DNA of 54,470 nt from Patescibacteria group bacterium (GTDB lineage Bacteria; Patescibacteriota; Patescibacteriia; Patescibacteriales; UBA12465). Shown piece after piece: positions 34,939-54,470 of the stretch. The notes under the pieces were generated by a model. The model worked only from the letters and a program-made list of their open reading frames with translations, made no database searches and had not been told where the DNA came from. Location: assembly GCA_041651355.1 (NCBI GenBank), contig JBAZJK010000002.1, forward strand, positions 1 to 54,470. Direction: 5' to 3'. Every line of letters begins with the position of its first letter. Position 1 is the first letter of the stretch. The position numbers were made by a program, and so were the translations under genes.

Positions 34939-35628
34939 ATGATGACTGACATAGCTGTTTCAATTTGCGTGCCTGCGTTTAACGAAGAAAAAACCCTGAG
35001 GGGAGCCGTTGAGGATTTATTAGAGACTCTGCACTCGAAGGTCGGGGGATTAGATATTATTATCGTTGATGACGGGAGCACGGATTCTACCACGCAGGTT
35101 TCCGTTCAGCTAATGAGGATGCATAAAAATATCAGGGTTATCCGGCATGCAAAAAGAATGGGCATCGGGGCAAGCTACAGAGATGCCTTAAAAATAGCCC
35201 GGGGGGATTATTTTACATGGTTCCCCGCAGACCATGAGAATTCAGCTCAGGAATTTATCCTCTGCCTGCCATATTTAAAAAAAGGCGCGATAGCAACATG
35301 TTATCATCGCGGACAGGACCCCCGGACATATTTGCGGCGTTTTATTTCCCGCGGTTATACCGTTCTTTTAAATATCGTTTTCCGCTTAAATCTAAAATAT
35401 TACAACGGCTTGACAATATTCCCGCTATCGGCCTTGTCTCCGTCCGTTTCTCTTTGCGACGGCTTCTTTTTTACCGCCGAAAATATCATCAAGGCAGTCC
35501 GGAGAGGTTACAAGGTAATAGAACTACCGGCTCCGTTAAAGGGGCGCGCATCCGGAAGCTCCAGTGCGTTGACATTTTCATCTTTCAGACAGGCGATAAG
35601 CGATATCCTGCGTATTTTAAGGGGATAA
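34939..35628 (+). CDS. GT2, polyprenol-phosphate glycosyltransferase (DPM1-like)
   Basis: VSICVPAFNEE, VDDGSTD, GIGASYRDA, FPADHE, R...SSA. Short single domain. Confidence 0.85.
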   Translation: MMTDIAVSICVPAFNEEKTLRGAVEDLLETLHSKVGGLDIIIVDDGSTDSTTQVSVQLMRMHKNIRVIRHAKRMGIGASYRDALKIARGDYFTWFPADHENSAQEFILCLPYLKKGAIATCYHRGQDPRTYLRRFISRGYTVLLNIVFRLNLKYYNGLTIFPLSALSPSVSLCDGFFFTAENIIKAVRRGYKVIELPAPLKGRASGSSSALTFSSFRQAISDILRILRG

Positions 35629-38098: not shown

Positions 38099-39477
38099 AG
38101 GTACTGTTGACAGTCCCTGCCGTTGATACTTGCTATGAGCGCGTCCCGAGCATTGGGCTTATGAACCTCTACCTTATAGGCAAGAGGCTTGGGTGCGATA
38201 TTGAATTATTGGATATATCCGACCTGCCTTATCAGAGAGGACTACGCAGGCTTTTGGCAAAGCGATATGATGTGATCGGCATTTCGTGCAACTTTACTAA
38301 CGCCGCCCCCTACTGTATGCAATATGCCAGAGAGATAAAAGAAAAATACCCCGATACGCTCGTCATCTCCGGAGGTAATCATGCCACCCTCGTTCCGGAA
38401 GACCTTTTATTTAACAAATACGATTATATTCTCTATGGGGAAGGGGAGTTGGTCTTTGCAGATTTTATAGGCAGGATTCTAAAGGGCAAGCCCGCAGATG
38501 ATATGAGCGGGATCTTCTATTTAAAGGGGGGCAAAATAATAAGGAACGCCCCCCGCCAGCCCATAGAGGACCTGGATACCCTGCCGTTTAATGATTATTC
38601 TGATTTTGACCTGGAGTATTATTTCCGGCGTTCAGGCCTGCGCTACATAAGCATGGAAACCTCTCGCGGTTGTATCTATAATTGCTCGTTTTGCTCTACC
38701 GTGAAGATGTGGGGGCATAGATATAGACATAAGAGCCCGGAGAGGGTGCTTAGCGAATTCAGGGTTGCCGGGAAGCTAGGACTTGACTTCATATTTGTAG
38801 AAGACGATGACGCGGCACTTGACGAAGATAACCTGCGCAGCTTCTGCGGACTGCTGGCTCGCGAAGATATAGGCGTGCCCTGGGGGATGGGGGTAGGCTC
38901 CGCGTCCATCAAGAAAGAATCTACGTTTGACCTTATAGCGAAAGCAGGATGCGTTAAGGTTAATGTAAACATAGAATCGGCTAATCCGCGCATTTTGAAG
39001 GAATACCGCAAGCCTTATGCCATAGAAGATAACAGGGCCTTATGCGAAAATTTAAAGAAGAGGAAAATCCTAATTCATAATCATGGTATAATTGGCTTGC
39101 CTGGCGAAAGTATAAAAGAAACGCTTAATACCTATTTTTACCTTATCAAGACATCTCCGCTTTGGCATATCAGTATCTTGGAGCCGAGGCCCGGATCCGA
39201 TTATTGGAGAAGATGGGATAAAAAGGGAGACGTTAGGCAATATAGGCTTTTTGGCAAGGCCAATGTTATACTAGGCCGAAAGAAATTAGCTAGTTATTTA
39301 TTATACAGGATTTTTGCTCTATTTTATTTTTTGAATCCCGCCCGAGTTTACAAGGCGCTCTTCGGAGCTGATAAAGGCACAAGATACAGTTATCGTGTGC
39401 AGTATTATGTCGCTTACAGAACCGTAAAGGCGAACCTTTTTAACCTTTTTTCGGCTAAGATCAACGATGTTAAATAG
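38095..39477 (+). CDS. Cobalamin-binding radical SAM protein (class B methylase-like)
   Basis: PSIGL, GISC, SGGNHAT, GEGE, SRGCIYNCSFC, IES, IIGLPGE. Confidence 0.9.
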   Translation: MKVLLTVPAVDTCYERVPSIGLMNLYLIGKRLGCDIELLDISDLPYQRGLRRLLAKRYDVIGISCNFTNAAPYCMQYAREIKEKYPDTLVISGGNHATLVPEDLLFNKYDYILYGEGELVFADFIGRILKGKPADDMSGIFYLKGGKIIRNAPRQPIEDLDTLPFNDYSDFDLEYYFRRSGLRYISMETSRGCIYNCSFCSTVKMWGHRYRHKSPERVLSEFRVAGKLGLDFIFVEDDDAALDEDNLRSFCGLLAREDIGVPWGMGVGSASIKKESTFDLIAKAGCVKVNVNIESANPRILKEYRKPYAIEDNRALCENLKKRKILIHNHGIIGLPGESIKETLNTYFYLIKTSPLWHISILEPRPGSDYWRRWDKKGDVRQYRLFGKANVILGRKKLASYLLYRIFALFYFLNPARVYKALFGADKGTRYSYRVQYYVAYRTVKANLFNLFSAKINDVK

Positions 39478-41263
39478 TTTTTATAAAAGCACAGAAAAAA
39501 AATATTTTTTGTTTTTTTCTTTTGTATTATTCGCCTCGCTGTTTATTATTTATTTTCCTTGCGTTCATTATCCCCCTCTGAGCGATTACTGGGAAAACTT
39601 TTATTTTTATCAACATCTCGATAAGCTCCCCGGAACAATAAAATGGCTCCATGTTTTAAACCATGATCCTTTTGAGCATATGCGTTATCAGCCCTTATCG
39701 CGCATATTCTCTTATTTTTTATATCTGACATTCGGCTCCAACTTCATCTTTTACAATATTTTAAACTTCATCTTTTATTTTTTGAGCCTCTTGATCCTCT
39801 ACAGGTTCGCCCTTTATTTTATCAAGGATAAGATTCTCATCGCAGCATTCATCTTTCTCTACGCTTTTCTATTCAATCACTTTGATATCCTGCTGTGGTC
39901 CTGTCATATACATATCATCGCGGGCTTCTCTTTATTTCTGCTGGGATTTATTGCCTTCATGGAATACCTTAAAAAGGGGGGGATGCATTTAGTTTTAGCG
40001 AGCGCGCTACTTTTCTTAATAGGAATGTTCTGTTATGAAAGTTTCTTCCTCTGGCCCCTCGGGATTGTCATATTGTCCTCTATAAAAAGCCTTAGAACAC
40101 AAGGAAAGCACGCGGCCAAGCCGCTTAAAAAGCCCATTTTCTTAATATTGGCAAGCGTTTATATTTTTTATTTTCTCGCCTTTCTTTTCACACGCTCTTT
40201 AAAAACATACATTAACCCCCGCTATAGTTTCTACGATTTTTTACAACCGCATGTCTTTGTTCTATCTGCCCTCTCTGTAATTTTTAATATTTACAACAAT
40301 CTCGCTGTAGCTATCCTTCCCATAATCGTTTTCCCCCTTAAGGTGGCAGAAAATATATATATGGCCGGTCCGTTGATTAATTATATCAACCGAGGTAATA
40401 ATTGGTTTGTTTATTCGATGGGCGGCTTATTTAGCTTGATCGTAGCAGCGCTCTTTGTTTATCTCTATAAAAAAAGATACGTTGAAGAATGGAAGATAAT
40501 AGTTTATTTCTTATTTTTGCTAACCGCAGAACCTTATATAATTTTTTTCTGCAGGCTTCTTGATAACGCCTTAGGATATTGCCTCAGCGAATTCAGGTAT
40601 CAGTATATACCCAACGCCTTTATTATCTTAACTGTTGCTTTTATCATTGAAAGGTTCGTTAAGCCATCCAGGCGCAGGAAGAAATTAATATTTGCCTTTT
40701 TGGCGCTAATCTTTTTCTTAAACATTGTTTGTATCCACAGGGTCATGAACATATATAATTACCATCTTTCCGGGCTTCAGAGGATGATCTCCAGCATCAA
40801 AAGAGGCATAGGCCAAGGGTATATAAACAGCAGTAACAGGTTGTATATAGATGAGGACCTGCCGGATTACCTGCCGCATTTATGTTGGAACATTGAAATG
40901 GGGGAATTATTTATTCCCAATGGCAATTATAAATGGATGTTTTCAGAGAAAGAGATGGAGAATTTTACAGATGCCCCTCAGAATGCCAGATGGGTTATCA
41001 GCAAAGAAAACTTCGGTGTTATTGACAAAAGCCAGGAGAGCCTTTCCGGAAAAGGTAGGAAGATAAATACTATCAGAGATAAATACTATATTACGCCAGG
41101 CAAGGACTACGTCTATATTGAATTAGGGTATCGCTACCGGAGGGAGGGGCGCCATGACCGCGAGAGAAGGATGTTTGAGAAGGCGCTGGAGTTGAATCCG
41201 AGAAATGAAGAAGCTAGGGGAGAACTATACCGCTGCCAGAGTAAGGGAACAGCGCTGTTTTAA
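39467..41263 (+). CDS. Polytopic membrane protein with C-terminal TPR, probable GT-C glycosyltransferase
   Basis: PPLSDYWE acidic first loop, YQPLS, about 11 TM segments, FRYQY. Terminal TPR YIELGYRYRREG...FEKALELNP. Confidence 0.7.
   Translation: MLNSFYKSTEKKYFLFFSFVLFASLFIIYFPCVHYPPLSDYWENFYFYQHLDKLPGTIKWLHVLNHDPFEHMRYQPLSRIFSYFLYLTFGSNFIFYNILNFIFYFLSLLILYRFALYFIKDKILIAAFIFLYAFLFNHFDILLWSCHIHIIAGFSLFLLGFIAFMEYLKKGGMHLVLASALLFLIGMFCYESFFLWPLGIVILSSIKSLRTQGKHAAKPLKKPIFLILASVYIFYFLAFLFTRSLKTYINPRYSFYDFLQPHVFVLSALSVIFNIYNNLAVAILPIIVFPLKVAENIYMAGPLINYINRGNNWFVYSMGGLFSLIVAALFVYLYKKRYVEEWKIIVYFLFLLTAEPYIIFFCRLLDNALGYCLSEFRYQYIPNAFIILTVAFIIERFVKPSRRRKKLIFAFLALIFFLNIVCIHRVMNIYNYHLSGLQRMISSIKRGIGQGYINSSNRLYIDEDLPDYLPHLCWNIEMGELFIPNGNYKWMFSEKEMENFTDAPQNARWVISKENFGVIDKSQESLSGKGRKINTIRDKYYITPGKDYVYIELGYRYRREGRHDRERRMFEKALELNPRNEEARGELYRCQSKGTALF
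39730..41214 (+). repeat. 1485-bp direct repeat, copy 1 (copy 2 at 41552-43036)
   Basis: attcggctccaacttcatc ... agaaatgaagaagc recurs at a constant offset of 1822 nt. The translated proteins are identical over this span and no mismatch was seen in spot checks. Confidence 0.92.
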
Positions 41264-41288
41264 TCCTGAAACAGGAGGCCGGGGTTAA

Positions 41289-43070
41289 GTGTTAAAGATG
41301 GTTTTAAGGGTAATAAACGCTAGGGGGAATCTAATATTTTTTTTTCTGCTTCTTGGAGGCCTATTCCTGGCAGCTTATCCCTCATTTTTCTATCCGCCCT
41401 TAAGCGATTATTGGGAGATGTTTTATTCTTTTCATAATCTAGGGCGTTTCCCCGGACAGATAAAATGTCTGCATATTCTGGGCTTTGACCCGCTAGAGCA
41501 AGTAGGATTCCGTCCGCTTGCAAACTTATTCTACTATATTTTTTATCTTTTATTCGGCTCCAACTTCATCTTTTACAATATTTTAAACTTCATCTTTTAT
41601 TTTTTGAGCCTCTTGATCCTCTACAGGTTCGCCCTTTATTTTATCAAGGATAAGATTCTCATCGCAGCATTCATCTTTCTCTACGCTTTTCTATTCAATC
41701 ACTTTGATATCCTGCTGTGGTCCTGTCATATACATATCATCGCGGGCTTCTCTTTATTTCTGCTGGGATTTATTGCCTTCATGGAATACCTTAAAAAGGG
41801 GGGGATGCATTTAGTTTTAGCGAGCGCGCTACTTTTCTTAATAGGAATGTTCTGTTATGAAAGTTTCTTCCTCTGGCCCCTCGGGATTGTCATATTGTCC
41901 TCTATAAAAAGCCTTAGAACACAAGGAAAGCACGCGGCCAAGCCGCTTAAAAAGCCCATTTTCTTAATATTGGCAAGCGTTTATATTTTTTATTTTCTCG
42001 CCTTTCTTTTCACACGCTCTTTAAAAACATACATTAACCCCCGCTATAGTTTCTACGATTTTTTACAACCGCATGTCTTTGTTCTATCTGCCCTCTCTGT
42101 AATTTTTAATATTTACAACAATCTCGCTGTAGCTATCCTTCCCATAATCGTTTTCCCCCTTAAGGTGGCAGAAAATATATATATGGCCGGTCCGTTGATT
42201 AATTATATCAACCGAGGTAATAATTGGTTTGTTTATTCGATGGGCGGCTTATTTAGCTTGATCGTAGCAGCGCTCTTTGTTTATCTCTATAAAAAAAGAT
42301 ACGTTGAAGAATGGAAGATAATAGTTTATTTCTTATTTTTGCTAACCGCAGAACCTTATATAATTTTTTTCTGCAGGCTTCTTGATAACGCCTTAGGATA
42401 TTGCCTCAGCGAATTCAGGTATCAGTATATACCCAACGCCTTTATTATCTTAACTGTTGCTTTTATCATTGAAAGGTTCGTTAAGCCATCCAGGCGCAGG
42501 AAGAAATTAATATTTGCCTTTTTGGCGCTAATCTTTTTCTTAAACATTGTTTGTATCCACAGGGTCATGAACATATATAATTACCATCTTTCCGGGCTTC
42601 AGAGGATGATCTCCAGCATCAAAAGAGGCATAGGCCAAGGGTATATAAACAGCAGTAACAGGTTGTATATAGATGAGGACCTGCCGGATTACCTGCCGCA
42701 TTTATGTTGGAACATTGAAATGGGGGAATTATTTATTCCCAATGGCAATTATAAATGGATGTTTTCAGAGAAAGAGATGGAGAATTTTACAGATGCCCCT
42801 CAGAATGCCAGATGGGTTATCAGCAAAGAAAACTTCGGTGTTATTGACAAAAGCCAGGAGAGCCTTTCCGGAAAAGGTAGGAAGATAAATACTATCAGAG
42901 ATAAATACTATATTACGCCAGGCAAGGACTACGTCTATATTGAATTAGGGTATCGCTACCGGAGGGAGGGGCGCCATGACCGCGAGAGAAGGATGTTTGA
43001 GAAGGCGCTGGAGTTGAATCCGAGAAATGAAGAAGCGGTTTTTGTATTGGAAGAGTTAAGGATGAGGTAA
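41289..43070 (+). CDS. Paralog of 39467..41263: polytopic GT-C-like membrane protein with C-terminal TPR
   Basis: GTG start. PPLSDYWE, FRPLA. Identical to the upstream gene from FGSNFIF to NPRNEEA. Confidence 0.7.
   Translation: MLKMVLRVINARGNLIFFFLLLGGLFLAAYPSFFYPPLSDYWEMFYSFHNLGRFPGQIKCLHILGFDPLEQVGFRPLANLFYYIFYLLFGSNFIFYNILNFIFYFLSLLILYRFALYFIKDKILIAAFIFLYAFLFNHFDILLWSCHIHIIAGFSLFLLGFIAFMEYLKKGGMHLVLASALLFLIGMFCYESFFLWPLGIVILSSIKSLRTQGKHAAKPLKKPIFLILASVYIFYFLAFLFTRSLKTYINPRYSFYDFLQPHVFVLSALSVIFNIYNNLAVAILPIIVFPLKVAENIYMAGPLINYINRGNNWFVYSMGGLFSLIVAALFVYLYKKRYVEEWKIIVYFLFLLTAEPYIIFFCRLLDNALGYCLSEFRYQYIPNAFIILTVAFIIERFVKPSRRRKKLIFAFLALIFFLNIVCIHRVMNIYNYHLSGLQRMISSIKRGIGQGYINSSNRLYIDEDLPDYLPHLCWNIEMGELFIPNGNYKWMFSEKEMENFTDAPQNARWVISKENFGVIDKSQESLSGKGRKINTIRDKYYITPGKDYVYIELGYRYRREGRHDRERRMFEKALELNPRNEEAVFVLEELRMR
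41552..43036 (+). repeat. 1485-bp direct repeat, copy 2
   Basis: See copy 1. Both boundaries were checked by eye. Confidence 0.92.
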
Positions 43071-43127
43071 CGAGAGTCGGGCGCAGCGGGGTTTAGAAAT
43101 ATTTTTCTATGACATATATTTATAGAG

Positions 43128-43133
43128 TATAAT
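43128..43133 (+). promoter_or_regulatory. Possible sigma70 -10 element (TATAAT) in the longest intergenic gap, upstream of the SGNH-TPR genes
   Basis: Perfect TATAAT in an AT-rich 140-nt gap (43071-43210). No convincing -35 at 16-18 nt spacing. Confidence 0.25.
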
Positions 43134-43210
43134 TATTAAAATGCGATTGATTAGAGCTAAGGTTGAGAGATCAGTAAATATGAGGTGGTATTCAGTAAGG
43201 AAAACATATT

Positions 43211-45070
43211 GTGTATAAAACAACCTTTCTCCAGAAGATAGGCCTGATTCTTGTAGGGATATTTTTATGCGCTTTGATTATTGAAGTAAGTTTACGTACC
43301 GCAGGATTTTTAATTATATTAATGCGGGAACGCGATAATGCCGCATCTTTGAGAGATAAAGGGGCTTATCACATTCTATGTTTAGGAGAGTCTACTACCG
43401 CCTTGGGGGGGGAATCGTCTTGGCCCGCGCAGCTGGAGACTGTTTTGAATGAACGTAACAGCGGCATTAGATTTAAAGTAATAAATGGCGGGAGAGAGGA
43501 TATTGATACCGCTACCATTTCCTCAACATTAGAAAATACGCTTGTTAAATATCATCCCGATATGGTTATATCCATGACAGGCATCAACGATGGTCCCCGT
43601 ACAGTGCCCCACGAATACCTCGTACTCGTAAATAAAAAGCCATTTTTTTCGAGACTTAGAGTCTATAAATTAGCGAAAGCGATTTTTTTGCATATTATGA
43701 ACAAAGCGAGGGAAATGGGTATTTATAAAACCCGGGTTTCTCTGAATAATCGGGTTTCTAGTTATGCTGATGCGGGCTACAGGAGCAAGCGTTTTAGGAA
43801 AACAGAGAATATGGCACTTGATACTTTGAAAATCGACCCCAACAATTCCGAGGTCTATAATGAATTAGGGCATCTCTATAACAATCTTAATAGGGTCCGC
43901 GAGGCAGAAGAGATGTTCAAGAAGGCCTTGAAGATCTCTCCGGTGATGTTTAGTGCATATGACGGACTGGGGGCTTGTTATGCTAGCCAGAGCAGGTACG
44001 GCGAGGCAGAAGAGATGTTCAAGAAGGCATTGAAAATCGACCCCAACAATTCCGAGGTCTATAATGAATTAGGGAGGCTCTATAGCAAAACAAAAGACTA
44101 TCATCAGGCAACAGTGATGTTTAAAAAAGCAATGAGCTTAACGATTGCCGAGTCTTCTCAGGATAATGAAATTGACGCAAGGCAAGAAGAGCGCGCCTAT
44201 AGCGAAACAGAAGAAGCATATAGAAAAGCAATAGAGCTTACGCCGCTCGACTATAATAAATACATAGTGCTAGGGTCTTATTACCGAGAGCAAGAAAGAT
44301 ATGCCGAATCGGAAAAAATTCTTAAAGAGGCCATTCGTATAGCCCCAGATAATGCAAGGGCCTATTTTGAATTAGGAACTTGTTATATTAACCAGCATAG
44401 ATATAAGGAACAAGAGAAAATGTTCAGGAAGGTAATCGAGATTAACCCATCTGACAGTGCTGCCTATTGTGAATTGGGTCATCTTTATAGCAGTCATCAG
44501 AGATACGGCGAGGCAGAAGAGATGTTCAAGAAAGCAATAGAGCTTGCCCCGTACGAAATTGAGGCCTATCTAGGATTAGCCACTTGCTATAGAGAGCAGG
44601 GCAAGCTTGAAGGAGTAGAAGAATTAGCCAATTTGCTCAGGAAAAGAGAGATACAGCACGACCGCATTTACGGCATCATAGCCCTCTCTTATTTAGATGA
44701 GGGGCAATTCAAAAAGGCAGAGATTTTTATTAAGAAAGCAAACGAATTCAGGGCCAAGTATTACAATCCCGTAACTTACTATAACTACAGAAGAATCAAG
44801 AAGATTGTTACAGAAAGAGGAATTAAATTTGTCTGTATGCAGTATCCGATGCGCAGCATAGAACCTTTGAAAAAGATTTTTGACTCTAACGAAGACATCA
44901 TCTTCGTAAGCAACGAAAAGATCTTCAAGGAAGAGCTAAAAAAAGCCAGATACGAAGACCTCTTTGTAGACAGTTTTGGTGGCGAGTTTGGTCATGCTAC
45001 TGCCCGCGGCAATAGGCTTATTGCCGAGAATCTCGCGGATACCATAATCAAAGAGGTCATCAGTAAATAG
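43211..45070 (+). CDS. Membrane-anchored SGNH-family protein with inserted TPR array
   Basis: TM LQKIGLILVG.... Block I LGESTT, INGG, TGIND. About 8 TPRs (VYNELG...AEEMFKKAL.I.P). Block V DSFGGEFGHAT. Confidence 0.85.
   Translation: MYKTTFLQKIGLILVGIFLCALIIEVSLRTAGFLIILMRERDNAASLRDKGAYHILCLGESTTALGGESSWPAQLETVLNERNSGIRFKVINGGREDIDTATISSTLENTLVKYHPDMVISMTGINDGPRTVPHEYLVLVNKKPFFSRLRVYKLAKAIFLHIMNKAREMGIYKTRVSLNNRVSSYADAGYRSKRFRKTENMALDTLKIDPNNSEVYNELGHLYNNLNRVREAEEMFKKALKISPVMFSAYDGLGACYASQSRYGEAEEMFKKALKIDPNNSEVYNELGRLYSKTKDYHQATVMFKKAMSLTIAESSQDNEIDARQEERAYSETEEAYRKAIELTPLDYNKYIVLGSYYREQERYAESEKILKEAIRIAPDNARAYFELGTCYINQHRYKEQEKMFRKVIEINPSDSAAYCELGHLYSSHQRYGEAEEMFKKAIELAPYEIEAYLGLATCYREQGKLEGVEELANLLRKREIQHDRIYGIIALSYLDEGQFKKAEIFIKKANEFRAKYYNPVTYYNYRRIKKIVTERGIKFVCMQYPMRSIEPLKKIFDSNEDIIFVSNEKIFKEELKKARYEDLFVDSFGGEFGHATARGNRLIAENLADTIIKEVISK
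43826..44074 (+). repeat. 45-bp exact repeat (43826-43870 and 44030-44074), spacing 204 nt = two TPR units
   Basis: ttgaaaatcgaccccaacaattccgaggtctataatgaattaggg occurs twice. Confidence 0.85.
44711..45065 (+). repeat. 355-bp gene-tail repeat shared with 47724-48078; inner 247 bp (44812-45058) also at 46253-46499
   Basis: Offsets 3013 and 1441 nt. One silent mismatch seen (ggcaat vs ggcaac at 45013). Confidence 0.9.
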
Positions 45071-45089
45071 CCCTGCAGTATATATACAA

Positions 45090-46514
45090 ATGCCGATTAA
45101 GCAAAAAGTAAGCCTGGTATTATTTGGGATATTGCTGTGTTGTTTTATTCTTGAGTTGGGGCTGCAATTGTCGTCTTTCGCATTCCTGTCATTAAGAAAG
45201 CATAAAAATAAAACACCACTTAAATCTTTATCTAATGGTGTCAGCTACTGTATTTTATGCCTGGGTGAATCAACCACAGCCTTAGGAGAAGATAGCTCTT
45301 GGCCTACGCAACTCGAAAAGATATTAAATGAGAATAAGAACGGAATAAGTTACAAGGTTATAAATATGGGTAGAATGGCGGTTGAATCCTCAGCTGTGCT
45401 GTCGCTCCTAAAAGCAGACTTGGATAAATACAATCCTGATATGGTAATTACTATGATAGGCGTGAATGACTGGGTAGGGACCATACCGTATCAAGATTCT
45501 CGGGTTTTTAGAATCAAGTTATTTATAAGCAGACTGAAAAGCTACAAATTAGCAAGATTAGTTTGGCTGCATACGATAAATAAGGTTAATCAGGCGGCGC
45601 AATCTAAGAAGCAGAAGGATGGGGGGTCTCTTAGAATTTCATCTATTTCTAGCGGCGGAAAGCAGTTAGGTGCAGAAGCGGCTTTATCTAACGGGCAGGC
45701 ATTCGTTGAGTTAGGGTATTATTATTATGAGAGAGGGGAATATAAAGAAGCAGAGCATGCTTTTAAGAAAGCAATAAGTGCGGATTCCCAGGATGCAGCT
45801 GGGCATATCGGCTTAGGGCAATGTTATAGAGAACAGGACAGGAATAAAGAGATGGAGAAGGCGGCAAAACAAGCGATTAGGCTTGACCCCGGCAACGCAG
45901 ATGCCTATATCCTGCTTGGAAATGCCTATCAGGATCGGGAAGATTACCGGAGTGCGGAAGAGGCGCTGAAACAGGCCGTCGAACTTAATCCGAGGTGGGA
46001 ACCCGCTTATACAGAATTAGGAAGTTGTTATAGGAAACAAGGAAAGGTAAAAGAGGCGCACGACCTAGCTAAAAGAATTATAAAGGAAGGGCTGGTTAAT
46101 GATCGTCTTTATGGTTTTGTGGCTACTTCTTATGTGGAGGAAGGCAGATATTATGAAGCCGGCGAATATTATAGAAAGGCAGAAGAATTTCGGTTGAGAT
46201 ATTATAATCCTGCTACGAGGCACAATTATAATAAACTCAGAGAAATCCTGGTAGAAAGAGGAATTAAATTTGTCTGTATGCAGTATCCGATGCGCAGCAT
46301 AGAACCTTTGAAAAAGATTTTTGACTCTAACGAAGACATCATCTTCGTAAGCAACGAAAAGATCTTCAAGGAAGAGCTAAAAAAAGCCAGATACGAAGAC
46401 CTCTTTGTAGACAGTTTTGGTGGCGAGTTTGGTCATGCTACTGCCCGCGGCAACAGGCTTATTGCCGAGAATCTCGCGGATACCATAATCAAAGAGGTCT
46501 CTTGGAAGGAGTAA
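45090..46514 (+). CDS. Membrane-anchored SGNH-family protein with inserted TPR array (paralog 2)
   Basis: LGESTT, INMG, IGVND, about 4 TPRs, identical C-terminal GEFGHAT block. Confidence 0.85.
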   Translation: MPIKQKVSLVLFGILLCCFILELGLQLSSFAFLSLRKHKNKTPLKSLSNGVSYCILCLGESTTALGEDSSWPTQLEKILNENKNGISYKVINMGRMAVESSAVLSLLKADLDKYNPDMVITMIGVNDWVGTIPYQDSRVFRIKLFISRLKSYKLARLVWLHTINKVNQAAQSKKQKDGGSLRISSISSGGKQLGAEAALSNGQAFVELGYYYYERGEYKEAEHAFKKAISADSQDAAGHIGLGQCYREQDRNKEMEKAAKQAIRLDPGNADAYILLGNAYQDREDYRSAEEALKQAVELNPRWEPAYTELGSCYRKQGKVKEAHDLAKRIIKEGLVNDRLYGFVATSYVEEGRYYEAGEYYRKAEEFRLRYYNPATRHNYNKLREILVERGIKFVCMQYPMRSIEPLKKIFDSNEDIIFVSNEKIFKEELKKARYEDLFVDSFGGEFGHATARGNRLIAENLADTIIKEVSWKE

Positions 46515-46517
46515 TTC

Positions 46518-48083
46518 ATGCGACATGCCAGGCTTCGTTATAAGATAGCAGTGGTATCCTTGGCGATCTTTTTTTCTTTTTTTGCGCTTGAGGCGGTGAT
46601 GCGTCTCGAAGAATCTATAACTATTTCATTAAAACACTACAAAAATATACAATTTCCCAAAAATGAAGGTGTATATTGCATTTTGGCCCTCGGTGATTGC
46701 ACTACTGCATTGGGAGGAATGGATTCTTGGCCAGCGCAGTTAGACAAAGTATTAAATGCACAGAATACAGGCGTAAGATTTAAAGTAATAAATAAAGGCA
46801 GAACAGATACGGACACCTCGGTCATCGTTTCAAAGCTGGATGACCTGCTAAATAAAATTAAGCCAGATATGGTTGTCGTAATGAGCGGTATCAACGATGG
46901 CATACGCGATACACCTTATGATAATTTAGAGATTCCTAATAAAAAGAGGTATCCTCCCCAGTTAAAGATATATAACTTAACGAGAAAAATTTACTTAGCA
47001 ATTGTTAAAAATATTAAAAGAACAAGATATAGCCGCAAGAGCAATATTTCTAAAAACTGCGAATCCGGAATTATTAATAATGGTAATTCTTATGCATTTG
47101 GGAAGCAATACAATAGGGCGGAGGCGATATTTAAAAGAAAAATAGAGATTAATCCCCGGGATGATGAGGCATATCTTAGGCTGGCGCGTTATTATAAAAA
47201 GAACGGGGCTTATTCTCAGGCAGTAGAAGCACTTAAAAAAGCTATAGCCTTAGACCCTAAGAATTACAAGGCCTATATCGAACTGGGAGATTGTTATAGT
47301 TCTCATGATGCATTTGTCGAAGCAGAAGAGACATATCAAAAGGCGATAGAGTTAGCACCTGAAAATCACGTAACTTATATGATGCTCGGCTATTGTTATA
47401 GAGATCAAAGAAAACATCAACAGGCAGAGGCAATGTTTAAGAGAGCCATAGTAATAAACCCTAGAAGCGACTGGGCATATGGGGAGCTTGGAAATCTTTA
47501 CGCTGGTTCTAAGCGATGTGCTGACGCAGAAAAAATGTATCAAAAAGCAATAGAGCTTGATCCGAGGCACATCAGCGTTTATGTTGAATTGGGCAGTTGC
47601 TATATGCAGGAAAATAAAATCAGCGAGCTGGAAGAGTTGCTGGAGCAGGCCAAAAAAAGAAATATTTACAATGACCGTTTATATGCGCTTGAGGCCCTGT
47701 ATTATAGGGCCCAAGGAAATGATAAAAAGGCAGAGATTTTTATTAAGAAAGCAAACGAATTCAGGGCCAAGTATTACAATCCCGTAACTTACTATAACTA
47801 CAGAAGAATCAAGAAGATTGTTACAGAAAGAGGAATTAAATTTGTCTGTATGCAGTATCCGATGCGCAGCATAGAACCTTTGAAAAAGATTTTTGACTCT
47901 AACGAAGACATCATCTTCGTAAGCAACGAAAAGATCTTCAAGGAAGAGCTAAAAAAAGCCAGATACGAAGACCTCTTTGTAGACAGTTTTGGTGGCGAGT
48001 TTGGTCATGCTACTGCCCGCGGCAACAGGCTTATTGCCGAGAATCTCGCGGATACCATAATCAAAGAGGTCATCAGTAGATAA
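46518..48083 (+). CDS. Membrane-anchored SGNH-family protein with inserted TPR array (paralog 3; Cys at the nucleophile position)
   Basis: LGDCTT, INKG, SGIND, about 6 TPRs, identical C-terminal GEFGHAT block. Confidence 0.85.
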   Translation: MRHARLRYKIAVVSLAIFFSFFALEAVMRLEESITISLKHYKNIQFPKNEGVYCILALGDCTTALGGMDSWPAQLDKVLNAQNTGVRFKVINKGRTDTDTSVIVSKLDDLLNKIKPDMVVVMSGINDGIRDTPYDNLEIPNKKRYPPQLKIYNLTRKIYLAIVKNIKRTRYSRKSNISKNCESGIINNGNSYAFGKQYNRAEAIFKRKIEINPRDDEAYLRLARYYKKNGAYSQAVEALKKAIALDPKNYKAYIELGDCYSSHDAFVEAEETYQKAIELAPENHVTYMMLGYCYRDQRKHQQAEAMFKRAIVINPRSDWAYGELGNLYAGSKRCADAEKMYQKAIELDPRHISVYVELGSCYMQENKISELEELLEQAKKRNIYNDRLYALEALYYRAQGNDKKAEIFIKKANEFRAKYYNPVTYYNYRRIKKIVTERGIKFVCMQYPMRSIEPLKKIFDSNEDIIFVSNEKIFKEELKKARYEDLFVDSFGGEFGHATARGNRLIAENLADTIIKEVISR

Positions 48084-53692: not shown

Positions 53693-54470
53693 ATGAAATT
53701 ATTATTTTTAATATTTGCGGCATTAATATCAGCGGATATAATTGGGCATTGCGAAGCAGTTGATGATACGCAGATATCAGCTACTGCTAATGTAAAGTCT
53801 TCATCTGATTCGGGCAAGACAACTGTTGGCGAAGCGTTTAATTATTATCGTATTTACTATGAAAATGGCCAGCAGTTTAATCCCTATTATTTGTCTGGTG
53901 CTTATTTTAATTTAGCCCAATCCTACTCTACCCAAGGCAATTACCCCAAGGCGCTGGAATACCTGCAAAAGGCGCTGGGGCTTAATCCCAATAATGTTGA
54001 TGTATATGTTGGCCTGGCACAGATCCATTCCACCCAAGGCAATTACCCCAAGGCGCTGGAATGCCTGCAAAAGGCGCTGGGGCTTAATCCCAATAATGTT
54101 GATGTATATGTTGGCCTGGCACAGATCCATTCCACCCAAGGCAATTACCCCAAGGCGCTGGAATGCCTGCAAAAGGCGCTGGGGCTTAATCCCAATAGCG
54201 CTGATTATTACTCCAGGGTGGCTGAGATCTATTCTACCCAAGGCAATTACCCCAAGGCGTTGGAATGCCTGCAGAAGGCGCTGGTGCTTAATCCCAATAA
54301 TGTTGATGTATATGTTGGCCTGGCACAGATCCATTCCACCCAAGGCAATTACCCCAAGGCGCTGGAATGCCTGCAAAAGGCGCTGGGGCTTAATCCCAAT
54401 AGCGCTGATTATTACTCCAGGGTGGCTGAGATCTATTCTACCCAAGGCAATTACCCCAAGGCGTTGGAAT
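53693..54470 (+). CDS. Secreted TPR-repeat protein (partial, runs off window end; absent from the ORF track because it has no stop)
   Basis: AGAGGAG RBS, ATG 53693. MKLLFLIFAALISADIIGHCEA signal-like peptide. Then repeated TQGNYPKALECLQKALGLNPNNVDVYVGLAQIHS (34 aa), open to the window end. Confidence 0.9.
   Translation, partial: MKLLFLIFAALISADIIGHCEAVDDTQISATANVKSSSDSGKTTVGEAFNYYRIYYENGQQFNPYYLSGAYFNLAQSYSTQGNYPKALEYLQKALGLNPNNVDVYVGLAQIHSTQGNYPKALECLQKALGLNPNNVDVYVGLAQIHSTQGNYPKALECLQKALGLNPNSADYYSRVAEIYSTQGNYPKALECLQKALVLNPNNVDVYVGLAQIHSTQGNYPKALECLQKALGLNPNSADYYSRVAEIYSTQGNYPKALE
53930..54470 (+). repeat. 102-bp tandem repeat array encoding TPR units (at least 5.3 copies)
   Basis: acccaaggcaattaccccaaggcg starts at 53930, 54032, 54134, 54236, 54338 and 54440. 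Confidence 0.95.

Follow-up and report, generated by a model that had tools for sequence, protein, structure and literature searches.

An ancient tandem pair of GT-C-like genes with divergent heads and a homogenised core in the surface-glycan cluster of a probable Omnitrophota bacterium

How can two neighbouring genes be identical at every position over most of their length and begin with stretches that differ strongly? This question is raised by g1 and g2, two tandem genes for membrane proteins that resemble glycosyltransferases of the GT-C fold. They lie in a stretch of 54,470 nt (the window), which is the whole of contig JBAZJK010000002.1 (here C2) in the assembly GCA_041651355.1, deposited as a Patescibacteria group bacterium, and whose contents are a glycan gene cluster only. 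In a base-by-base comparison at an offset of 1822 nt, window positions 39730-41214 and 41552-43036 agree at 1485 of 1485 positions in a single unbroken run, so that the identity described in the initial annotation holds for the assembled sequence. The 240 nt 5' of the repeat (39470-39709) are ~55% identical between the copies, an abrupt drop, and 3' of 41214 and 43036 identity is at noise level, the two copies showing no relatedness there. This is the longest exact repeat of the 1.07-Mb bin, the runners-up (302, 247 and 201 nt) all falling within the adjacent SGNH-TPR genes (TPR, tetratricopeptide repeat). Composition at the repeat gave no distinctive signal.

The proteins show the same division. 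Residues 89-583 are identical in 495 of 495 positions, and the first 88 codons, here called the head, share 37 of 88 residues (42%), made up of 9/32 in the first transmembrane helix (TM1), 22/43 in the first external loop and 6/13 in the start of the next helix. The heads are saturated at synonymous sites (proportion of synonymous differences, pS, 0.74) and have a dN of 0.50 between them. The C-terminal tails, with 1 of 15 residues in common, are unrelated in sequence and length. Because all the invariant head residues of the family (P36, P37, S39, D40, W42, D67 and P76) are kept in both copies, neither g1 nor g2 looks like a decaying gene; departures from the family consensus are W60C and N65G in g2, and F48Y and H49Q in g1. 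The initial annotation described two enzymes differing only in an acceptor/catalytic loop. This is roughly correct, except that TM1, the start of the next helix and the C-terminal tail vary as well; and while the loop that carries the putative catalytic acid is indeed among the divergent parts, g1 and g2 do not differ at any of the seven residues just listed, which include the putative catalytic ones.

The history of these parts was read against a sister population represented by three contigs from two Joint Genome Institute (JGI) samples, L002 and L009 from 3300029288 and L003 from 3300037067, all ~90-93% identical to the window at the nucleotide level. L002 (36 kb) starts 86-91 nt before the end of a core and continues through a g1-type tail and the spacer into a complete g2 ortholog; L002:1-86 recurs as L002:1823-1908, which is the same 1822-nt period as in the window. 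L009 carries a g1-type head, ~98% identical to that of the window, and ends inside g1 at residue 215. L003 (1735 nt) holds core, g1-type tail, spacer and the start of g2, and its last 326 nt are identical to L002:1-326. The g2 ortholog P0002 has 593 aa and the same GTG start, and the order of heads, tails and spacer is common to L002, L003, L009 and the window. Since the bridge from core to g2 head is contiguous in three independent assemblies (window, L002 and L003), the tandem arrangement is, judged by these contigs, real.

In the heads, 103 sites are orthologous, meaning that window g1 agrees with sister g1 and differs from the state common to window g2 and sister g2, and 0 are concerted; the outer parts of the core, left and right together, have 62 concerted sites (window copies alike, sister copies alike, lineages different) and 0 orthologous ones. 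The window copies of the core show 0 differences from each other versus ~7-10% to the sister population. In orthologous comparisons dS is 0.085 for the g1 head (window versus L009), 0.25 for the g2 head (versus L002) and 0.23-0.35 for the core. Conserved synteny and the orthologous head sites together place the duplication, by this comparison of sequences, before the split of the two lineages. A comparison with related genomes, which the initial annotation had named as a check, thus bears out its reading of an old duplication with recent homogenisation: heads that are orthologous, core flanks that are concerted, and tract boundaries that differ between lineages. We consider it likely that g1 and g2 are ancient tandem paralogs whose bodies have been kept alike by recurrent interlocus gene conversion.

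The same pair might instead have arisen by a recent tandem duplication, after which one head and one tail were replaced by foreign sequence through horizontal transfer. The two heads are as distant from each other (44% amino acid identity) as from homologues of other genera, and a tree of the heads alone does not join them, although that tree covers 80 residues and is without support values. Against this, both heads, both tails and the spacer stand in the same order in the sister population, and this order, with the count of 103 versus 0 sites, means that the two-headed arrangement predates the split and that the cores are younger than it. With both heads orthologously conserved in the sister lineage, a recent duplication with a foreign head was rejected and is highly improbable.

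The limits of the homogenised tract also differ between the two lineages. The sister copies match each other at 100% in the core flanks and at just 50-70% over the central ~440 nt, whereas the window core is identical throughout, which implies different tract boundaries. On the 3' side, however, the boundaries of the two lineages lie no more than 5 nt apart, since homology ends there. For most of its length the shared core of the window is g2-like (as in L002), and at ~40368-40493 it is nearer to L003, the copy with the g1 tail. This 2/1/2 mosaic shows 25 runs over 125 informative sites (permutation p<=1e-5), with the best block at 40388-40443.

Gene conversion would account for these patterns as follows. 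The ancient paralogs g1 and g2, of an uncharacterised glycosyltransferase-like family with a GT-C-type predicted fold, lie in a very large cluster of surface-glycan genes, probably that of an Omnitrophota bacterium, and their codons 89-583 would have been kept alike by recurrent interlocus (non-allelic) conversion between direct repeats. Events would have occurred repeatedly and with different boundaries in different lineages, and the latest event or events in the window lineage would have made the full 1485 bp uniform, chiefly with sequence of the g2 type. On its 3' side the tract would stop where homology ends, as the tails of g1 and g2 are unrelated. The 5' limit would lie at the edge of the strongly diverged head, where conversion may stop through too little identity for heteroduplex extension, through selection for two heads, or through both. 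The outcome would be a pair of co-transcribed enzymes that share a body, each with its own version of TM1 and external loop 1. In solved GT-C enzymes, TM1 and external loop 1 shape and line the substrate cavity. It is conceivable that selection maintains two heads on one body, either as two acceptor/donor specificities or as the two halves of a PMT-like heterodimer; we hold this idea only tentatively and regard it as rather doubtful.

The three SGNH-TPR paralogs next door show the same kind of homogenised 3' tract. Their exact tracts, at window positions 44711-45065, 46253-46499 and 47724-48078, measure 302+52, 247 and 201+45 nt, position 45013 being the one difference, and form a second case of partial homogenisation in the locus.

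Several observations weigh against the preferred explanation. The two ends of contig C4 are reverse complements of each other over 127 nt, tandem repeats of ~100 nt lie at the ends of contigs C2 and C3, and contig C1 is broken within the 23S rRNA gene; these features give the bin the look of a short-read de Bruijn assembly. In a de Bruijn graph a tandem of the form A-R-B-R-C is a loop in which R is one edge walked twice. Two copies printed from such an edge are bound to be identical, any sparse differences having been merged, and the traversal count is an estimate. The perfect identity and the count of exactly two copies are so far properties of the assembly as printed and may not hold in the organism; the duplication and the strong homogenisation are real. 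Further, L009 g1 and L002 g2 are not identical in the left core flank (75-96%), and L003, whose first bases are g2-like and whose sample is not that of L002 and L009, may be a third copy or another strain. Lastly, RecA was found in the bin only on C1, probably the chromosome of another organism, and this gene was for that reason discarded as evidence about the host of the window. As a separate observation, the end of the window (53913-54470) lies inside a TPR tandem repeat with a 102-nt period and exact repeats of up to 185 nt, and is therefore an assembly break and no biological end.

As far as the perfection of the identity is concerned, these features leave weight with the assembly artefact that the initial annotation had named as its alternative. 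It would be an artefact of degree, in which the tandem pair is real but its cores differ in the organism, by scattered single-nucleotide polymorphisms or by diverged patches of the same length, and in which the assembler merged the cores into one edge and wrote it twice, possibly alternating g2-type and g1-type branches. The hallmarks of short-read de Bruijn assembly in the bin speak for this, as do the size of the repeat, which far exceeds any other that the assembler resolved, and the genuinely diverged central segments between the sister copies; picking of branches would likewise yield the mosaic seen in the window core. However, patches that differ at 30-50% of positions over ~440 nt are not readily merged as bubbles; in the two sister assemblies the diverged centres broke the contigs at this locus, whereas the window contig continues across it. 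A search for stray pieces with a different central segment found none in the bin and none of fragment length among 5.8 billion proteins. Even if the artefact were granted, most of the core would still be homogenised, and because the sister population, too, has core flanks of 100% identity, gene conversion would remain the underlying biology. On balance this artefact is unlikely.

The number of copies can be questioned in the same way. There may be more than two, or copy number may vary by unequal crossing-over between the 1485-bp repeats, with the contig representing a minimal traversal. A perfect direct repeat of 1.5 kb is a good substrate for unequal exchange, and L003, with nearly one period (1735 of 1822 nt), a g2-like start and an end in the g2 head, has the form expected of a middle copy or of a loop contig. 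L003 is nevertheless a low-rank short contig from another sample, and may represent g1 in a strain whose tract is slightly longer. Some strains may have a third copy, but as an account of the window, variation in copy number seems to us quite improbable.

We return to conversion between two paralogs and to what these proteins are. Pfam and NCBIfam searches with g1 and g2 gave no family outside a weak C-terminal TPR match, leaving the membrane part unmatched, and a profile of the family against PDB sequences returned TPR proteins as its sole matches. Ten distant relatives from a profile search of 1.8 billion proteins matched no Pfam family and gave no sequence bridge to a named GT-C family. The family itself is not small: a word-indexed search gave 71 full-length relatives, the named ones nearly all from metagenome-assembled genomes (MAGs) of Omnitrophota or the Planctomycetes-Verrucomicrobia-Chlamydiae (PVC) group, and an exhaustive profile search gave 128 clusters at E<=1e-30. 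Many homologues of g1 and g2 carry long TPR arrays. Named MAGs hold 49 family loci, often several per genome; tandem or multiple paralogs occur among these 49 (e.g. L052), without a homogenised core in any.

An AlphaFold model of g1, built from a 42-sequence alignment (pLDDT 91.6, pTM 0.92), has ~11-13 long helices in residues 2-449, followed by a small alpha/beta domain and ~1.5 TPR units, and thus describes a polytopic membrane protein with an extracytoplasmic soluble part, as expected of GT-C enzymes, for which ~8-13 transmembrane helices are usual. The model of the g2 membrane domain reached a pLDDT of 90.1. In a full-length Foldseek search against the PDB the top 15 matches were all GT-C proteins (DPY19, STT3, PglB and PMT) at a probability of ~1.0, with E values of 2e-3 to 9e-2 and TM-scores (TMq) of 0.29-0.37, all below 0.5. 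With the g2 membrane domain alone the top 14 were GT-C (STT3, DPY19, PglB, PMT, ArnT and AftA; TMq 0.35-0.47). Matches outside GT-C had a probability of ~0.1 (transporters ~0.12).

Two sequence motifs accompany this fold. The GT-C pattern consists of an acidic residue after TM1, in the first external loop, and an Arg or Lys followed by Pro in an external loop of the C-terminal transmembrane cluster (PMC6801728). D40, invariant in the 42 sequences and present in g1 and g2, stands in the motif PPxSDxWE directly after helix 2-32, in the form DxxE as opposed to the classical DxD, and R377, invariant within EFRYQYIPNAF and then followed by P at the start of helix 377-398, resembles the second element at the level of pattern only. 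Later external loops hold the conserved polar residues H138, D140 and E191. D40 is the putative catalytic Asp, kept in both copies. Genes for GT2 enzymes of the lipid-carrier type are present in the surrounding cluster. The label GT-C, which the initial annotation had given to the pair, is supported by the Foldseek ranking and by the motifs, and is limited by the TM-scores and by the want of a sequence-family model: g1 and g2 belong to no curated GT-C sequence family, whether PMT_2, STT3, DPY19, ArnT-like or others. They are best described as proteins with a GT-C-like predicted fold and motif pattern that are placed in no named GT-C family.

A second, larger group of proteins (P0142-P0203, ~650-1300 aa) matches the membrane domain only, at about profile positions 10-450, with E values of 1e-43 to 1e-25. 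It too has no Pfam family, and one member carries a Laminin_G_3 domain. Because this group matches the membrane domain alone, a GT-C-like superfamily without a curated model appears to be broader than the family that ends in TPR units.

The organism that carries the pair is probably not the one for which the bin is named. Contig C1 (881,714 nt) starts at position 2539 of the 23S model, followed by 5S, and ends at position 2640, and the flush 102-nt overlap of its ends in the 23S gene (regions C1:1-528, L064, and C1:878965-881714, L065, were compared) closes it into a circle of 881.6 kb. All named homologues are from Omnitrophota or the PVC group, and the sister contig has an ATP-grasp gene whose counterparts in two named Omnitrophota MAGs are 73% identical to it, versus <=36% in relatives of the bin. 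Tetranucleotide comparison of C2 with C1 gave no clear separation either way. Since C1 closes on itself and the homologues of C2 are all Omnitrophota/PVC, C2 is probably an Omnitrophota contig mis-binned with the closed and complete Patescibacteria chromosome C1. No match to the g1/g2 family was found among the 40 nearest relatives of the bin, and as those genomes are related to C1 and not to the window contig, this absence was discarded as evidence.

The features of the pair are collected in Table 1. The start of g1 overlaps the upstream B12-radical-SAM gene by 11 nt, and a promoter and terminator scan of 38900-43400 gave no signal beyond shuffled expectation; with the AGGAGG before g2, these make co-transcription of g1 and g2 likely. 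Public gene calls place the start of g1 deep inside the open reading frame (ORF), giving 493 aa (NCBI) or 434 aa (IMG) in place of 598 aa, and the truncated calls lose TM1 and the loop with the invariant Asp (window 39467-39782); public calls of g2 have 550 or 593 aa. The N-terminus missing from the g1 calls is conserved throughout the family.

Table 1. Positions of the tandem genes and their parts in the window
Feature	Position	Strand	Description
g1	39467..41263	+	ORF, 598 aa; GT-C-fold (predicted) membrane protein with periplasmic alpha/beta domain and short TPR end
g1 variable head	39467..39729	+	TM1, first external loop (D40 codon 39584-39586) and start of next helix
Core copy 1, codons 89-583	39730..41214	+	Remaining transmembrane domain, periplasmic domain and first TPR helices
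L003-like patch in core	40368..40493 (again at 42190-42315)	+	From the string of informative sites, runs test
Unique bridge 'B'	41215..41551	+	g1 tail (16 codons), 25-nt spacer and g2 variable head
AGGAGG	41273-41278	+	In the 25-nt g1-g2 spacer, 10 nt before the g2 GTG
g2	41289..43070	+	ORF, 593-aa paralog, GTG start
D40 codon of g2 head	41406-41408	+	Within bridge 'B'
Core copy 2	41552..43036	+	Exact match to 39730-41214
g2-specific tail VFVLEELRMR*	43037..43070	+	Kept in ortholog P0002 as ASVLEELNKR

Beyond the pair, collinearity of the sister cluster with the window is confined to positions 34958 to ~43054, at 90-93% identity, and this limited extent suggests that the glycan cluster is a mosaic between close lineages. 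Upstream of 34958 the window has no match to L009:1-1491, and downstream L002:2068-5791, compared with window 43211-48083, has fewer SGNH-TPR genes and is much more diverged (73-82%).

Gene conversion among tandem paralogs is already a well-known mechanism. Bacterial paralogs that evolve in concert in this way include tufA/tufB, tandem flagellin genes and mtrA (PMC6053082). As in those cases, the g1 and g2 paralogs are closer to each other than to their orthologs, synonymous sites included, and they were duplicated before the lineages split; like fla and mtrA, they are tandem copies. Unlike in that survey, where homogenisation is full-length, it affects only the body of g1 and g2 while the head stays at saturated divergence, and the tract boundaries differ between two close lineages, giving a mosaic. 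For HMA4 of Arabidopsis halleri, divergence in a mosaic between tandem paralogs that undergo conversion has been both described and modelled (PMC3749932, bioRxiv 10.1101/2025.10.29.685298); there, tandem copies likewise have homogenised tracts beside regions that escape conversion, although HMA4 is eukaryotic and dosage-driven, and g1 and g2 are prokaryotic, lie in a likely operon and have a diverged functional module. In UGT1-type loci a variable first exon is joined to a constant body (PMC1885805). The resemblance, which is an analogy only, is that of glycosyltransferases with a common body and a different N-terminal, substrate-facing part; UGT1 achieves this by splicing onto shared exons, whereas g1 and g2 are two full genes whose bodies would be held the same by recombination.

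At the level of the protein, the predicted polytopic membrane fold with a C-terminal soluble domain is like that of STT3/PglB (GT66), DPY19 (GT98), PMT (GT39) and ArnT (GT83). The acidic residue after TM1 and the Arg followed by Pro in the last transmembrane cluster are shared with the solved GT-C(A) enzymes (PMC6801728), from which g1 and g2 differ in having no detectable sequence-family membership, in TM-scores that reach only 0.31-0.47 and in the motif SDxWE as against DxD/ExD. TMTC1-4 (GT105), eukaryotic GT-C O-mannosyltransferases, also have C-terminal TPR repeats (PMC6801728), so that in both a GT-C-type membrane domain is followed by TPR repeats. However, g1 and g2 have no Pfam TMTC match, are bacterial, and have ~1.5 TPR units that follow a separate alpha/beta domain; the likeness comes from domain order, with no TMTC structure among the Foldseek matches. 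What is particular to g1 and g2 is how sharply the ancient head is set off from the homogenised body, the differing tract boundaries in two close lineages, and a variable part that corresponds, by analogy with solved GT-C enzymes, to the module lining the substrate cavity.

Tandem paralogs with homogenised tracts either break assemblies of metagenomes or are written from one graph edge, and for this reason, together with truncated public gene calls such as those of g1, such loci are probably under-reported. For an unstudied GT-C-like family, g1 and g2 offer a clean natural experiment, with the same body and two heads, and the pair points to TM1 and external loop 1 as a candidate for substrate choice. 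If selection does maintain two heads on one body, the reading held above to be rather doubtful, recurrent conversion would keep the two bodies, and with them any oligomer interface, alike, and the locus would be a recombination-based bacterial counterpart of glycosyltransferase loci with variable first exons. Unequal exchange between the 1.5-kb repeats could then also vary the number of copies and, with it, the surface glycan.

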